Shown: piece by piece, positions 4,549 to 48,326 of the stretch
Layout of the letters: every line of letters begins with the position of its first letter
How positions within the stretch are numbered: the stretch's first letter is position 1
Notes under the pieces: generated by a model
What the model was told of the DNA's origin: nothing
Databases searched by the model: none
Seen by the model: only the letters and a program-made list of their open reading frames with translations
Source of the DNA: an uncultured Clostridia bacterium
GTDB taxonomy: Bacteria; Bacillota; Clostridia; UBA1381; CAJOGA01
NCBI GenBank assembly: GCA_905233855.1
Contig: CAJOGA010000013.1
Coordinates: forward strand, 1 to 58,858
Direction of reading: 5' to 3'
Length of the DNA stretch: 58,858 nucleotides
Translations under genes and position numbers: made by a program

Positions 4549-6402
4549 TTATTCTTCTATCTCTGTTATTTGTGCCGCACGGGCTATAACGTTATCCAGC
4601 GGGTCGATACCGTCGTCAAAATCATCTTCTCTAATATCGTAATCATCAACGTCCGGCAGCGGTGCGTCTTCATATGCATCCGCCGCTTCCTGTGCGTCTG
4701 TTCCCTCGCCTGCAGGCACGGTATCAACTGCCGATGCGGCAGGATCCGGCTTGACAGAATCTGTCTTGACAGAATCTGTCTTGACAGGAGCTGTCTCGGC
4801 AGACTCATTTGCGGATTCGTTGTCGGATGCTATGGCATTAAAATCTATAATATCGTCAACATCCTTCTCAAAAACCGCCTTTACCTCCAAAGCATTACCC
4901 GTAACACGTTTCACCGCTTTTTTTATGTTATTCAGATTCATAGGAAGCGACACTATCTGTTTGGAGGTTTGCTCGTTCTCCTCGAAAAGAATCACTATGC
5001 CTTCGGCATCTATGGTTATCTTCTTTCGGAAAATCTGTGCATACACAGGCACACCGCCCGGCACCGTTTCCAACGCGCCTAAAATTTTTGCCCAGCTTTT
5101 TGCCGCTTTGACAATAACGTTATCGGCGGTAAGCTCACCCTTTTTGAATGGCTTTGTTACTGAAAAATTCTTTTCCGGCTTTTCCTCGGCACGTTCGGCT
5201 TCAGGTTGTTTTGACGTCTCTGCTACAGATTCGTTCTTTTCAACCTTAACCGTAACACCGTCTTTTATCTGCTGTTCAAGGGTAGACACCCTGTCCAGCA
5301 ACGCATCGTATGAAACGTCAAATTCGGTTCTGGTAAGCTTTATAAGTGCCAATTCATACACTATCTTAACATTCGGTGCCCATTTTGCCGTGCTTACGGC
5401 AGATGACAGCACGTTTATCATGTTTGATATTTTCTCTATTGATATTTTTTCGCTCTGACGTTTGAGCTTAATCACAAAATCGCTGTTATAGTCAAGCTCT
5501 ATATCCGGTGCAACCTTGCAGACCATTAAATCTCTGCAATACTTTATCAGCGAATTTATAAAGCTGTTCATATCGCTGCCTGCGGCAAACAAGCTGTCGT
5601 TTATATTTATCAGCGTTTTTGTATCGGAATCTATAACCGCCTGTACGGTTTTATACAATGTATCGTCATTCACGCCGCCCATTATCTGCGACACTTCGTC
5701 GGCAGTAAGCTTATCCTGCGACGCAAGCAGACACCTTTCAAGAATTGACAGCCCATCACGCATCGAGCCGTCCGCAAGAGTTGCTATCATATTCAGGGCA
5801 TCGTCGGTAACGTCAAAGCCGTCGCCGTACGCAATCTCTTTCATTCTGACAACTATGTCCGACACTTTAATACGCTTAAAGTCAAAGCGTTGGCATCTTG
5901 ACAAGATAGTCTGCGGCAGCTTATGCACTTCTGTTGTTGCAAGTATAAAAATAACGTGCTCGGGCGGTTCCTCCAGCGTTTTTAACAGTGCGTTGAACGC
6001 ACCTGCCGAAAGCATATGCACTTCGTCTATAATGTATATCTTATACTTTGCCACGCTCGCACTGTACACAACCTCGTCACGAATCTGACGTATATCGTCA
6101 ACGCCGTTGTTGGATGCAGCGTCTATCTCGGTAACATCCAGCACGCTCCCGTCCAATATGCCCTTGCATACATCACATTCGTTGCACGGGTTACCGTCTT
6201 TACTGTTCGTGCAGTTTACGGCACGCGAAAATATTTTTGCGGCAGTTGTTTTTCCTGTGCCTCTTGTGCCGCAAAACAAATATGCGTGAGCCGTTTTATG
6301 GTTCATTATCTGATTTTTAAGCGTTCTTGTTACATGCGTTTGACCGACAACGTCGTCAAACACCATAGGCCGCCATTTTCTGTATATAGCTTGATATGCC
6401 AT
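4549..6402 (-). CDS. dnaX: DNA polymerase III subunit gamma/tau
   Basis: MAYQAIYRKWRP start motif, Walker A GTRGTGKTT, zinc module CNECDVC and SRC motif LSRCQRF. ATG 6402 is preceded by AAGGAG. The C-terminus is an acidic low-complexity tail. Confidence 0.95.
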   Translation of the reverse strand: MAYQAIYRKWRPMVFDDVVGQTHVTRTLKNQIMNHKTAHAYLFCGTRGTGKTTAAKIFSRAVNCTNSKDGNPCNECDVCKGILDGSVLDVTEIDAASNNGVDDIRQIRDEVVYSASVAKYKIYIIDEVHMLSAGAFNALLKTLEEPPEHVIFILATTEVHKLPQTILSRCQRFDFKRIKVSDIVVRMKEIAYGDGFDVTDDALNMIATLADGSMRDGLSILERCLLASQDKLTADEVSQIMGGVNDDTLYKTVQAVIDSDTKTLININDSLFAAGSDMNSFINSLIKYCRDLMVCKVAPDIELDYNSDFVIKLKRQSEKISIEKISNMINVLSSAVSTAKWAPNVKIVYELALIKLTRTEFDVSYDALLDRVSTLEQQIKDGVTVKVEKNESVAETSKQPEAERAEEKPEKNFSVTKPFKKGELTADNVIVKAAKSWAKILGALETVPGGVPVYAQIFRKKITIDAEGIVILFEENEQTSKQIVSLPMNLNNIKKAVKRVTGNALEVKAVFEKDVDDIIDFNAIASDNESANESAETAPVKTDSVKTDSVKPDPAASAVDTVPAGEGTDAQEAADAYEDAPLPDVDDYDIREDDFDDGIDPLDNVIARAAQITEIEE

Positions 6403-6494
6403 GCAACTCACGCTCCTTTTAAAATTCTCATAATTCAAAACAAACGCCTGTTACGGCGTTTATCTGACTGTGTATTAATTTTAACAAACAAATA

Positions 6495-6628
6495 AACGGC
6501 TCCGATTGAGCACCCCTGCAACGCATCGGATAAACCGCTTATTGCTGCTCGGTTCCCCGCCTGACAAGGTTCACAGCCTCCGATCGTACAGGACTCAATC
6601 ATCATCGCCGAATTATTCACACACTTTA
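6495..6628 (-). ncRNA. ffs: signal recognition particle RNA (small, 4.5S-like)
   Basis: Minus strand contains CCUUGUCAGGCGGGGAACCGAGCAGC, the domain IV GUCAGG...GGAA...AGCAGC signature. The flanks GAUUGAGUCCUG and CAGGGGUGCUCAAUC pair with each other. TATAAT lies at 6636-6641 and the hairpin AAACGCCGUAACAGGCGUUU lies downstream. The position upstream of dnaX matches Bacillus scr. The ends are approximate. Confidence 0.75.
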
Positions 6629-9493: not shown

Positions 9494-10195
9494 TTACGCC
9501 GTTTCAATATCTTTTGCTTCCTGTAAATTCAAAAGGTTAACAGCTTCTTCAACCATCTTGTATTTTAATATTTTTCCTGCGGCATTCATAGGAAAACTGT
9601 CAACAAAACGGACATATTTAGGCACCTTGTGTTTTGCCATATGCTTGAGCACAAAATCTTTTATCTCCTCTTCTGTTGACGTTTCGCCTTCTTTTAATAT
9701 GACGCACGCCATAATCTGTTCGCCGTATTGCTTATCCGGCACGCCTATAACCTGAACATCGCTTACTTTTTCATGCGTATATATAAAATCTTCTATTTCT
9801 TTAGGATATATATTTTCTCCGCCACGGATTATCATATCCTTTATACGTCCGGTTATTTTGAAATTGCCGTCCGGGCGTCTCATTGCCAAATCACCTGTAT
9901 GCAGCCATCCGTCAGCGTCTATGGCATTTGCCGTTGCTGCGGGCATTTTGTAATACCCCTTCATTATGTTGTAACCTCTTGCCACAAACTCACCCGTTTG
10001 TCCGTCAGGTAATTCCTCGTTTGTTTCAGGATCTACTATCTTACACTCTATACCCGGAAGCGGTCCTCCGACTGTGTTGACTTTTATCTCAACAGAGTCA
10101 TCAGAGTGCGACATTGTGCAACCCGGTGAACTTTCGGTCTGCCCGAACACAATGGTTATTTCGGTCATATTCATCTTTTCTATAACCTCATTCAT
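9494..10195 (-). CDS. C-terminal portion of an AMP-dependent synthetase/ligase, continuing the upstream ORF in another frame
   Basis: Contains GWLHTGDLAMRRPDGNFKITGRIKDMIIRGGENIYPKEIE and a terminal KILKYKM motif. It has no N-terminal domain of its own. The open frame extends upstream of the ATG as ...ISAGSPCPIKVMNEV. Confidence 0.8.
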   Translation of the reverse strand: MNEVIEKMNMTEITIVFGQTESSPGCTMSHSDDSVEIKVNTVGGPLPGIECKIVDPETNEELPDGQTGEFVARGYNIMKGYYKMPAATANAIDADGWLHTGDLAMRRPDGNFKITGRIKDMIIRGGENIYPKEIEDFIYTHEKVSDVQVIGVPDKQYGEQIMACVILKEGETSTEEEIKDFVLKHMAKHKVPKYVRFVDSFPMNAAGKILKYKMVEEAVNLLNLQEAKDIETA

Positions 10196-12002
10196 AACCT
10201 TGATAGGACAAGGACTGCCCGCCGAAATCGGTCGAAGGAAAATTCTCGTGAGACAGCATTGCTATAAACATTGTAGGCACGCCGTTAAAAGCCGTTATTT
10301 TTTCTTTATTTATCATTTCAAGTGCCAGACGCGGTGAAAACGCAGGGATAGGACACATTGTCGCACCGTGCGTCATAGACGCCGTCATTGAAAGCACCAT
10401 GCCGAAGCAGTGGAACATAGGCACCTGTATCATAAATCTGTCGGCCGTGGATAAATCCATGCGGTCGCCTATATTTTTACCGTTATTGATAACGTTGTGA
10501 TGTGTGAGCATTACGCCCTTAGGAAATCCTGTGGTACCGGATGTATACTGCATGTTGCAAACATCATGACGGCTGATTGTAGCCATACGCTGATACACTA
10601 TCTCCGGCGGAGTTTCCTCTGACAAAGCCATAGCCTGATCCCATGTCAAACATCCCGGCTGCTGCGACTCTACCGTAACAACATGTCTTAAAAACGGCAA
10701 ACGTTTCGAGAAAAGCGGTTCGCTTGGCTTTTTGTCCTTAAGTTCAGGACAAATCTCATTTATTATGCTTATATAATCGGAATCTTTATAACCGTCAATC
10801 ATAACAACCGTATGTACATCTGCCTGACGAAGCAGATATTCCGCCTCATGTATTTTATATGCCGTGTTCACCGTTACCAATATAGCACCTATTTTAGTTG
10901 TCGCCCAGAATGTGATAAACCATGCCGGCACATTTGTTGCCCAGATTGCAACCTTGTCGCCGCGTTTTACACCCATTGTTATCAATGCACGGGCAAATGT
11001 ATCAACATCATCGCGGAACTGGCTGTATGTTCTGGTGTAGTCATGTGTTATATATTTAAATGCGTACTGATCCGGAAATTCTTCAACTATGCGATCCAAT
11101 AATTGCGGAAAGGTGAGGTCTATCAGCGTTTCCTTTTCCCAGATGTATTGGCCTGTTCCCGCTCTGTTGCTGTATAATCCGCCGCGTTGTGTTGTCTTCT
11201 GGGTATATTCGCTCATGTAATACGCAAACTGAGGAATAACAACGTCTGCCTCCGCAAGATCAGTGCTCCAACGTTTTACCCATTCCAAAGTTACATATCC
11301 TTCAAAATTGATTGAACGCAACGCAAACATCATATCTGATATAGGAAGGTCGCCCTCGCCCATCATTTTATACACTATCTTGCCGTTTTCCATAACGGAG
11401 TCCTTTATATGCACATATTTTATGTATGCACCTAAATTCTGAACAGTTTGCTCAGGCGTCTCACCGGCAACTCTGTACGGATGATGCATATCCCAAAGTG
11501 CCGCAACGGCATCGCTTTCCACCTGCTCAAGCAAATTGCAAAGACGCGAAGTGTCCGCATACACACCGTTCGTTTCAACAAGAAGCGTAACGTTGTTTTT
11601 CTCTGCAACAGGTGCAAGCTCTTTAAGCTGTTGAACAACCTGTGCATCATCAACTTCACCGTCAGGCATAACATCAAGATCGGCAAGAATACGCACATAC
11701 TGCGTGCCTACTTTTGCGGCAAGAGAAATGTATTCCGTTATTTCTTTTTTGTTTTCTTCGGCTTTGTCTGCATATTTCAAGCAGCAGTTGGACGAAAAAC
11801 AGGATATTGTCAAACCCATGTCGTTCAGCTTTTTTATTGTTTTAGGCAATTCGTTATCGGTAAACGGACGTGCGTTAACGGCAAAAATGTCGTTGCCCAA
11901 GCCTCTTACTTCAATACCGTCAAATTCCATATCCTTCGCCATGGAAGTAATGTCTTCCCAGCTTGATTTAGGACATGCCAATGTTGAAAATGATATTTTC
12001 AT
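10188..12002 (-). CDS. fusion of a xylose-isomerase-like TIM barrel (sugar phosphate isomerase/epimerase family) with the N-terminal domain of an AMP-dependent synthetase/ligase; frame broken near 10222
   Basis: MKISFSTLACPK...FDGIEVRG...LLVETNG...HIKD...VTLEW is a TIM-barrel pattern. It is followed by YTSGTTGFPKGVMLTHHN, the AMP-binding motif. ATG 12002 follows GGAGATGG. The ORF stops right after HENFPSTDF, while the family sequence continues in the next ORF. Confidence 0.8.
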   Translation of the reverse strand: MKISFSTLACPKSSWEDITSMAKDMEFDGIEVRGLGNDIFAVNARPFTDNELPKTIKKLNDMGLTISCFSSNCCLKYADKAEENKKEITEYISLAAKVGTQYVRILADLDVMPDGEVDDAQVVQQLKELAPVAEKNNVTLLVETNGVYADTSRLCNLLEQVESDAVAALWDMHHPYRVAGETPEQTVQNLGAYIKYVHIKDSVMENGKIVYKMMGEGDLPISDMMFALRSINFEGYVTLEWVKRWSTDLAEADVVIPQFAYYMSEYTQKTTQRGGLYSNRAGTGQYIWEKETLIDLTFPQLLDRIVEEFPDQYAFKYITHDYTRTYSQFRDDVDTFARALITMGVKRGDKVAIWATNVPAWFITFWATTKIGAILVTVNTAYKIHEAEYLLRQADVHTVVMIDGYKDSDYISIINEICPELKDKKPSEPLFSKRLPFLRHVVTVESQQPGCLTWDQAMALSEETPPEIVYQRMATISRHDVCNMQYTSGTTGFPKGVMLTHHNVINNGKNIGDRMDLSTADRFMIQVPMFHCFGMVLSMTASMTHGATMCPIPAFSPRLALEMINKEKITAFNGVPTMFIAMLSHENFPSTDFGGQSLSYQGYE

Positions 12003-12048: not shown

Positions 12049-12352
12049 AAAAAAAATCTTCGTCTCGCATGCATACAGCACAAGAGACGAAGATAACATA
12101 TCTCCGCGGTACCACTCTTATTGAAACCGTTATCTTATATAAAACACGGTTCCCGCTCATTTCATCTTTCAATGAATTTCCTTTTAACGGAGGAAAAGCC
12201 CGGTCGCACTTACTAAGCAAAAACACGCTTTTCGGCTGACTGCTCGAGGGGGAGCGTATATTACGCTTGCGGTCTGCCTTGCAGCAAACGGCAGCTCTCT
12301 GAGCCGCAACATCGTAACAACTTGCCCTGTCATTGCATTTAACTTTATATTC
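12049..12352 (-). promoter_or_regulatory. T-box leader with probable Tyr specifier (UAC)
   Basis: Minus strand carries an AGAGAG bulge, the F-box CCGUUA, the T-box AAUAAGAGUGGUACCGCGG (12104-12122) and the terminator CUUCGUCUC...GAGACGAAG plus U8 (12049-12092). The specifier segment GCGUAAUA-UAC-G aligns with GCGUAAUA-UGG-A in the second T-box of this window. Confidence 0.8.
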
Positions 12353-12365
12353 AATTATGCAATAC

Positions 12366-12394
12366 ATTATATTATGCATTTTTTGATATGTCAA
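12366..12394 (-). promoter_or_regulatory. consensus sigma-A promoter of the T-box leader
   Basis: Minus strand has TTGACA (12389-12394), a 17-nt spacer and TATAAT (12366-12371). Confidence 0.75.
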
Positions 12395-33834: not shown

Positions 33835-35052
33835 TTATCTTATACCATATTTTTCTATAATATAATCCATATCTTTATCGCCTCTGCCTGACAGATTAAT
33901 AAGAACAGAACCCTTACCCATCTTTTGTGCAAGCTTAATGCCGTATGCCACAGCGTGTGAACTTTCTATAGCAGGGATTATGCCTTCCATACGCGACAAT
34001 TCAAAGAATGCATCTATAGTATCGTCATCGTTTACAACGTCATATTTAACTCTGCCGATATCATGCAGGAACGCATGCTCAGGTCCGCTGGACGGATAGT
34101 CCAAACCGCTGGCAATAGAATATACAGGTGCAGGATCGCCGTTTTTGTCCTTAAGCATGATACTGTTAAATCCGTGCATAACGCCTTCGCTGCCGTACGT
34201 AATGCTTGCGGCATGATCGCCCAAAGCTGTTCCTCTGCCAAGAGGTTCAACACCGTATATTTCAACAGGATCGTTTAAAAATCCGGAGAAAAATCCCATT
34301 GCGTTTGAACCGCCGCCGACGCATGCAACTATAGCGTCAGGCAATTCGCCGGTCATAGACAAAAACTGCTCTCTTGCCTCTATGCCGACAACGCTTTGAA
34401 AATCACGAACCATCATAGGGAACGGATGAGGTCCAACTACAGAGCCTATGCAATATATAGCATCTTTATATTCTTTGCAATAAGCGTCAAATGCTGCATC
34501 CACAGCCTCTTTCAACGTTTGCAGACCGTCGGTTACCTCAACAACTCTTGCACCCAAAATTTTCATTCTGGCAACGTTCGGTGCCTGTTTTTTAACGTCA
34601 ACCGCACCCATGTATATATCGCACTCAAGTCCAAAATATGCCGCAGCAGTTGCAAGAGCAACACCATGTTGACCGGCACCTGTTTCGGCAATAACCTTTT
34701 TCTTGCCCATATATTTTGCCAAAAGCACCTCGCCCATACAATGGTTAAGTTTGTGTGCACCGGTGTGATTCAAATCTTCACGTTTAACATAGAGTTGAAC
34801 ATTGCCCAATTTGCCTGAAAGTCTTTCCAGATAGGATATAGGCGTTGGTCTGCCCTGAAATTCTTTGCGGATTCTTCTTAATTCGCTTATGAATTTACTG
34901 GATTTACATATTGTCTGGTATGCCTCACTGATTTCGTCCATTGCAGCTTGCAGCTCCGGCGGGATATACGAGCCGCCGTATTTTCCAAAATACCCTTTAT
35001 CGTCCGGGTAGTTTTTAAAGTATGTGCTAAAATCGATGTTGTTAAATTCCAT
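33835..35052 (-). CDS. trpB: tryptophan synthase beta chain-like PLP enzyme, stand-alone
   Basis: [23 protein letters not shown] (PLP lysine) and [11 protein letters not shown] 35052 follows GGAGG. No trpA is adjacent. Confidence 0.88.
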
Positions 35053-35091
35053 TTTATTTTCCTCCATAAATAAATTTTATTTACTAACTGT

Positions 35092-35367
35092 CAAAAACAA
35101 AAACGTCCCTGACAGAAATATACTATCTGTCAAGGACGAACATAAACAAATATCCGCGGTACCACCTTGATTTACGGCTTGAACCGTACACTCAGCAGAG
35201 TACAACCATACTCCCGGCTTCTGACGTTAGCCTTACGTCTGTGCATTTAACACAGCCCTCAGCAGTCCATATTACGCAGGCGTTCTTGCGGAACTCACAC
35301 CATAATCCGCTCGCTTTAAAGACCAACCCTGCCTTTTTTCTGCATCTACGGTTTAGTCTATCAAATT
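35092..35367 (-). promoter_or_regulatory. T-box leader with Trp specifier (UGG)
   Basis: Minus strand carries GCGUAAUA-UGG-A (UGG at 35267-35269), the T-box AUCAAGGUGGUACCGCGG (35154-35171) and the terminator GUCCUUGACAG...CUGUCAGGGAC followed by a U run. Confidence 0.85.

Positions 35368-48249: not shown

Positions 48250-48326
<77 letters not shown>

Follow-up and report, generated by a model that had tools for sequence, protein, structure and literature searches.

The stretch of DNA analyzed here is a contig of 58,858 nucleotides (nt) from an uncultured Clostridia bacterium (CAJOGA010000013.1); it is referred to as the window, and all coordinates are given for it. On its minus strand, a T-box leader RNA lies upstream of a gene that starts at 12002 and encodes a fusion of two domains, a TIM barrel of the xylose-isomerase-like type (PF01261) and an ANL acyl-CoA synthetase (PF00501 plus PF13193), confirming the non-canonical target of TIM-barrel/adenylating-enzyme type that had been proposed in an initial annotation of the sequence. 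The Rfam covariance model RF00230 (curated gathering score, 93 bits) matched the leader at 12342..12080 over model positions 1–219 of 219, with 101 bits and an E-value of 3.8e-21, and the element is a genuine T-box leader and an ordinary member of this family. Comparative evidence assigns its specifier codon to leucine and not, as initially annotated, to tyrosine, a correction that removes the basis of the tyrosine-related function suggested for the enzyme at the same time.

The motifs originally listed for this leader were all recovered (Table 1): the consensus promoter, a K-turn at the base of Stem I (GC-AAU-GA ... GA-GC), the AGAGAG bulge, the F-box, the UGGU of the T-box bulge, and a terminator overlapping the antiterminator. 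Folding predicted the antiterminator with −13.3 kcal/mol (z −3.56) and the terminator with −22.4 kcal/mol (z −6.8). The 5’-strand of the terminator overlaps the 3’-strand of the antiterminator, and since UUCGUCUC is common to both, the two folds are mutually exclusive. A consensus terminator scanner gave no call at 12094..12056, which is explained by its loop limit of 8 nt, as the loop of the present terminator is longer. The sequence AGUGGUACC(G/A)CG was identical across 40 orthologous leaders, which had themselves been selected by that motif.

Table 1. Positions of the T-box leader elements and of the disrupted target gene in the window.
Feature	Position	Strand	Basis and remarks
T-box leader RNA (Stem I, Stem II/IIA-B region, Stem III, antiterminator)	12080..12342	-	Rfam RF00230
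Sigma-70 type promoter TTGACA-17 nt-TATAAT	12366..12394	-	12/12 consensus positions; sole perfect site in the region
Stem I: basal K-turn, specifier loop, AG bulge, distal loop	12242..12336	-	Rfam alignment and covariation
AG bulge AGAGAG	12300..12295	-	Within Stem I
UAC, the triplet earlier taken as specifier	12256..12258	-	Comparative alignment; out of register by 2 nt toward the 5’ side, unconserved
Assigned specifier codon CUC (Leu), then C12251, then helix strand CCCU (12250..12247)	12252..12254	-	Rfam codon columns and 40-leader alignment
F-box CCGUUA	12185..12190	-	Rfam alignment (model CGUUA) and direct sequence reading
T-box sequence and antiterminator helix with 7-nt bulge UGGUACC (UGGU 12114..12111)	12081..12121	-	Folding
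Intrinsic terminator: 11-bp outer stem AUCUUCGUCUC/GAGACGAAGAU and inner hairpin, then U tract	12049..12094 (stem 12094..12056)	-	Folding
Target gene, first open reading frame (ORF): TIM barrel (amino acids 1–~270) and N-terminal part of AMP-binding domain	10188..12002	-	PF01261 98.5 bits, PF00501 217 bits; ends early by frameshift
Target gene, remainder in another frame: rest of AMP-binding domain and AMP-binding_C	9494..10222 (ORF 10195..9494)	-	Frame 2 reads ...AGSPCPIKVMNEVIEKMNM..., identical to P0001
23-nt deletion, compared with sister contig L081 (99.3% identical)	10223..10227	-	Codons for SQMRTGIM lost, frame shifted

In a T-box RNA, the three-base specifier codon is separated from the lower Stem I helix by a single base, which is usually a purine. 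The database TBDB counts the codon as positions 2–4 of the bulge, numbered from its 3’ end (PMC7778990). Where the model reads GAAauuca over eight loop positions, the Rfam alignment shows UACGCUCC for the window, with CUC in the codon columns (uuc) and UAC in the slot normally taken by the S-turn GAA; CUC also fills the codon columns of the orthologous leaders L008 and L082, the latter (5014–5293) from Acetivibrio thermocellus. Alignment to RF00230 had been named beforehand as the check on the Tyr assignment, and it places a different codon in the specifier position. An alignment of Stem I from 40 orthologous leaders (A2, codon in columns 96–98) gave the same answer, with CUC in 37 and CUG in 3 leaders, all of them Leu codons, and nine extra metagenome loci whose fusion orthologues are 63–69% identical also showed CUC. 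The four-pair helix closing the specifier loop was paired in 98.8% of the cells of the 40-leader alignment, with compensatory changes in three of the four pairs and with AGGG:CCCU, GGAG:CUCC, GAAG:CUUC, and CGGG:CCCG among its variants. For the three Stem I helices tested (11 pairs), 99.5% pairing and compensatory changes in 10 pairs were obtained; sliding the 3’ partners by 1–3 columns lowered whole-structure pairing to 40–57%, and none of 500 shuffles reached the observed covariation values. Because the helix register is fixed in this way by covariation and also by the Rfam columns, the codon falls on CUC at 12254..12252. The neighboring registers were rejected: a shift by −1 yields NCU, which is no conserved codon, and a shift by +1 yields UCN in most leaders and UGG in the three CUG leaders, an inconsistent mixture of Ser and Trp. 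The Tyr assignment had been based on a position-for-position alignment with a Trp T-box elsewhere in the window. The Trp T-box was indeed found there, but the shared GCGUAAUAU is a sequence coincidence, as CGUAA forms the 3’-strand of a helix with UUACG in the present leader.

The intact fusion protein comprises 843 amino acids (aa). Such a copy (P0001) is encoded on the metagenome contig L081 and is 100% identical to the window’s protein over the alignable part. The fusion inferred for the window itself thus held as far as homology is concerned, but not as a continuous reading frame, since the 23-nt deletion splits the gene into ORFs 12002..10188 and 10195..9494. Besides matching PF00501 and PF13193, the ANL domain displays the motifs YTSGTTGFPKG and GRIKDMIIRGGENIYP as well as a C-terminal GK, all invariant. 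Among NCBIfam models, the C-terminal 550 aa of P0001 were best matched by NF009233/PRK12583, the fatty acid CoA ligase family (695.3 bits, alignment 12–556 of 558). The TIM domain (11151–12002, about aa 1–284) scored 98.5 bits with PF01261, for which the gathering score is 31.1. Residues E143, D171, H198, and E240 are invariant in the fusion and align with the metal ligands of the xylose-isomerase-like fold, and the AlphaFold model of the domain (predicted local distance difference test, pLDDT, 85.8) gave template modeling (TM) scores of 0.70–0.77 to AsbF, IolI, and DPEase. The top Foldseek match was the dehydroshikimate dehydratase AsbF (E 7e-14, 19% identity), with epimerases and IolI following within one order of magnitude. 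A specific reaction cannot be assigned to the TIM domain because its fold matches (AsbF, IolI, ketose 3-epimerases, and others) are only 12–19% identical; it reached no NCBIfam equivalog (best, 49 bits versus 305) and matched no NCBIfam dehydratase model. The fusion family has four invariant cysteines, C10, C68, C73, and C74 (motif C-x-S-S-x-C-C), which standalone TIM homologues retain only in part. Such cysteines are unusual for xylose-isomerase-like barrels and might be redox-active or serve to coordinate a metal or cluster. Standalone TIM homologues (267 aa, Oscillospiraceae) had no T-box, adjacent acyl-CoA synthetase (ACS) gene, or amino-acid genes on their contigs, and no T-box was found with unfused ACS homologues (~50% identity) at metagenome loci. 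The latter (L103–L137, mostly from one metagenome assembly set) were preceded in 17 of 39 loci by a regulator gene combining an XRE-type helix-turn-helix with a cupin domain, which was uninformative.

Orthologues of the fusion occur in at least 597 species genomes, nearly all of them Clostridia. About 70% identity over the full length is seen in Oscillospiraceae, Acetivibrio, Peptococcaceae (Dehalobacter, Pelotomaculum), Hydrogenispora, Christensenellaceae, and Lachnospiraceae, with A. thermocellus, C. cellulosi, and Ruminococcus among the named members. When 80 orthologue loci were examined by profile search (nhmmer), a T-box was found directly upstream of the fusion gene in 41; A. thermocellus contigs carry one too, and the R. 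flavefaciens orthologues had none. The initial annotation had raised the possibility that orthologous fusions carry Tyr T-boxes, which was borne out in these 41 loci with respect to the T-box but in no case with respect to the amino acid, the codon being Leu in all 40 aligned leaders. Judged by sequence, the association of a Leu T-box with the fusion is conserved in about 50 independent Clostridia leaders. The fusion gene is monocistronic. No conserved gene neighbors were found among the 80 loci, the largest neighbor cluster being confined to 5 of them, and for this reason the T-box is the only contextual clue to the fusion. At one Lachnospiraceae locus (L068, 3039–3435), the Leu T-box is followed first by a small membrane-protein ORF (~95 aa) and only then by the fusion gene, so that it would control a two-gene unit there. 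A HEARO RNA (L014, 8532–8778) and a ZMP/ZTP riboswitch (L016, 877–988) lie in the flanks of two other orthologous loci and are unrelated to the fusion gene.

As a whole, the locus is very probably best explained by a transcription-attenuating tRNA-Leu T-box that controls the 843-aa TIM-barrel/acyl-CoA synthetase fusion. Transcription would begin from the consensus promoter, and Stem I would offer CUC to the anticodon of tRNA-Leu(GAG). If this tRNA is uncharged, its free NCCA end would pair with the UGGU bulge and thereby tip the balance toward the antiterminator and away from the terminator, which is by far the more stable of the two, such that RNA polymerase would read into the gene at 12002; with charged tRNA, the terminator hairpin followed by its U tract would form. 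Because uncharged tRNA-Leu would stabilize the antiterminator according to established T-box biology, we infer that production of the fusion enzyme is induced by a shortage of leucine. Genes under T-box control normally serve to replenish the amino acid whose tRNA is sensed, and since expression of the fusion is predicted to be switched on under leucine starvation, its most likely role, although speculative at present, would be to contribute to the supply of leucine or of branched-chain amino acids. Among candidate reactions, the most plausible one, likewise speculative, is the ATP-dependent CoA activation of isovalerate and perhaps of other branched short acids. Isovaleryl-CoA could then undergo reductive carboxylation to 2-oxoisocaproate, followed by transamination to leucine; alternatively, the CoA thioester might keep 2-oxoisocaproate from being consumed as a lipid primer. 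The isovalerate-to-leucine pathway of anaerobes has been known physiologically since the 1960s. It would need ATP-dependent activation of a branched short acid, as an ANL enzyme could perform. Several of the fusion-bearing lineages, Ruminococcus and Acetivibrio among them, are cellulolytic anaerobes. For rumen anaerobes, leucine synthesis by isovalerate carboxylation is attributed in PMC7356843 to Allison 1962 and 1966. We tentatively propose, while considering it rather unlikely in this explicit form, that the fusion constitutes the missing gene-level entry of a leucine/branched-chain salvage route widespread in Clostridia, for example, by activating isovalerate for ferredoxin-dependent carboxylation, with the TIM domain adding an undescribed step. 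If true, the fusion could be the activating enzyme of this long-known pathway.

A number of observations weigh against the explanation as a Leu T-box controlling a branched-chain supply enzyme. In the specifier loop, the codon is followed by C, where a purine would be usual, in the window and likewise in L001 and L002, its closest relatives; across the 40 leaders, G occurs there 15 times, A 14 times, C 10 times, and U once. In the same three leaders, the S-turn GAA that most orthologues keep is replaced by ACG or GCG (ACG in the window). Moreover, GCU, including the first two codon bases, is paired with a 5’ AGU in the minimum free energy (MFE) fold, and the three nucleotides of UAC bulge out. 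In our view, this conflict reflects the limits of purely energy-based folding where tertiary contacts shape the loop. In Stem I (12242–12336) of the window, L001, and L002, a 5’ loop AAG(U/C) is able to pair with GCU, and such pairing might occlude the specifier loop in a lineage-specific manner. Within the window, there is no tRNA-Leu(GAG) gene. The UGGU bulge would pair with A73, which is present in tRNA-Leu(UAG) of a related genome (L053); as A73 is common to tRNA-Tyr as well, it does not discriminate between Leu and Tyr. At the level of the family, 39 of the 80 orthologues are devoid of a T-box, and no other Rfam riboswitch was detected upstream in 27 scanned loci of this kind. The target gene is broken in the window by the frameshifting deletion, which interrupts the AMP-binding domain. 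As to the reaction, the PRK12583 score of 695.3 bits is below the curated cut-off of 832, although it exceeds that of the next model by ~260 bits; Protein Data Bank (PDB) relatives of the ANL domain have diverse substrates, and PDB searches by sequence and by fold retrieved nothing beyond generic ANL enzymes and generic xylose-isomerase-like barrels. The specificity for isovalerate is thus wholly inferred, and activation of this acid would give the TIM barrel no obvious job.

The original concept was that of a Tyr-specific T-box, according to which UAC (12258..12256) plus the purine G would serve as specifier, tRNA-Tyr would be sensed, and the target would be a tyrosine or aryl-acid enzyme. 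UAC-G does fit the codon-plus-purine rule, whereas CUC-C does not, and GCGUAAUAU is indeed followed by UGG-A in the Trp T-box. UAC is also left unpaired in the MFE fold, a structural feature that could have prompted the Tyr assignment, and AsbF is the top structural match of the TIM domain. However, UAC lies 2 nt off the covariation-supported loop/helix boundary, and it is absent from all 39 orthologous leaders, including those of the closest relatives at 75–78% protein identity, whereas the canonical position always holds CUC or CUG. The loops of the two nearest relatives read ...UUCGCG-CUC-C-CCCU (L001) and ...UUGGCG-CUC-C-CCCU (L002), with UUCG and UUGG, respectively, at the positions matching UAC; most other leaders have (G)UGAA or CGAA there. 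The AsbF match, at 19% identity, is indistinguishable from those to epimerases and isomerases. A Tyr-specific switch is therefore most improbable and is refuted by the comparative alignment, and the proposals built on it, namely activation of an aryl acid such as 4-hydroxyphenylacetate and a step resembling dehydroshikimate dehydratase, are left unsupported. A different objection concerns not the identity but the present use of the Leu T-box: in this strain, the element may be a decaying remnant that has become functionless together with a pseudogene target. The deletion relative to a 99.3%-identical contig with an intact gene speaks for such decay, although the leader is the same in both strains save one extra U in the U tract. 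The deletion could reflect either recent pseudogenization or an assembly error; unless it is the latter, the switch in this strain probably controls a pseudogene. Decay is thus a distinct possibility for the strain at hand, with the identity of the element being unaffected either way.

Other alternatives accept the Leu T-box and assign a different role to the enzyme. It might scavenge exogenous branched short-chain acids to provide isovaleryl-CoA or other branched primers for iso-fatty acids, leaving 2-oxoisocaproate and leucine undrained, similar to MbcS of Staphylococcus aureus. The predicted control of the fusion by leucine starvation would be in line with such a sparing function, and many Clostridia have iso-branched lipids. 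MbcS is reported to supply branched acyl-CoA primers (PMC10026030), and acyl-CoA synthetases that make branched-chain primers from free acids exist (PMC10026030, PMC11167679); MbcS is not a fusion protein. No lipid-synthesis genes were found near the fusion gene, the TIM domain is left unexplained, and Leu T-boxes usually control supply, as exemplified by the ilv-leu operon of Bacillus subtilis, all of which makes leucine sparing decidedly unlikely. A further scheme gives both domains a task: a sugar-like substrate or a keto acid would be isomerized, epimerized, or dehydrated by the TIM barrel before the ANL domain activates the product, with no role of branched-chain acids and with the leucine link being, for example, a new precursor route. 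Here, the invariant metal-ligand residues and the confident TIM model with its resemblance to ketose epimerases, IolI, and AsbF can be accommodated, and ~70% identity over both domains along with retention of the fusion in hundreds of species suggests coupled catalysis. On the other hand, no candidate substrate can be named, the standalone TIM homologues lack informative neighbors, and the unfused ACS homologues lack a T-box. We consider this two-step scheme a serious alternative, if less likely than not.

Compared with the Leu T-boxes of Firmicutes such as those of B. subtilis leuS and ilv-leu, the present leader belongs to the same family, RF00230, with the same arrangement of K-turn, specifier loop, AG bulge, distal loop, F-box, UGGN antiterminator bulge, and competing terminator, and it is predicted to follow the same logic, with codon CUC and read-through on uncharged tRNA-Leu. 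It differs in its subclade-specific loop, with C 3’ of the codon in place of a purine and ACG for the S-turn GAA, and in its target, which is neither leuS nor the ilv-leu operon or a transporter; the fusion thus falls outside the usual T-box regulon classes of aminoacyl-tRNA synthetases, classical biosynthesis, and transporters. The Tyr T-box of tyrS shares RNA family and mechanism with our leader, which has CUC as specifier and UAC out of register and unconserved. On the protein side, the ANL motifs are as intact as in the ACSF2/YngI-like enzymes of PRK12583/NF009233, to which the fusion adds an N-terminal TIM barrel that members of this family lack. Relative to xylose-isomerase-like barrels (ketose 3-epimerases, IolI, AsbF, FrlC), with which it has the fold and residues aligning with the metal ligands in common, it adds the four invariant cysteines and the adenylating partner. 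We found no description in the literature of this fusion or of a T-box preceding a CoA ligase, whereas T-box catalogues (TBDB, RegPrecise) may already list the leader. The value of the finding lies in a conserved, putative leucine-starvation signal on a widespread fusion without informative neighbors, including that of the genetically tractable A. thermocellus, and the link to a Leu T-box provides a specific, cheap, and testable hypothesis for an otherwise opaque protein family.

The window contains several other RNA features. The Trp T-box (35357..35129, minus strand; specifier UGG-A) scored 86.8 bits, which is below the gathering score of RF00230, and was therefore missed by the default Rfam scan. 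It precedes a gene at 33835–35067 for a 410-aa pyridoxal phosphate (PLP)-dependent (PALP) enzyme of the tryptophan-synthase-beta (TrpB-like) type. A c-di-GMP-I riboswitch (RF01051, 63.7 bits) is located at 586–663 on the minus strand, upstream of a small minus-strand ORF at 27–383. Finally, a partial match to the bacterial large signal recognition particle (SRP) RNA (model positions 84–230) lies at 6482–6628 on the minus strand, and a tRNA-Pro(CGG) gene is found at 48250–48326 on the plus strand.

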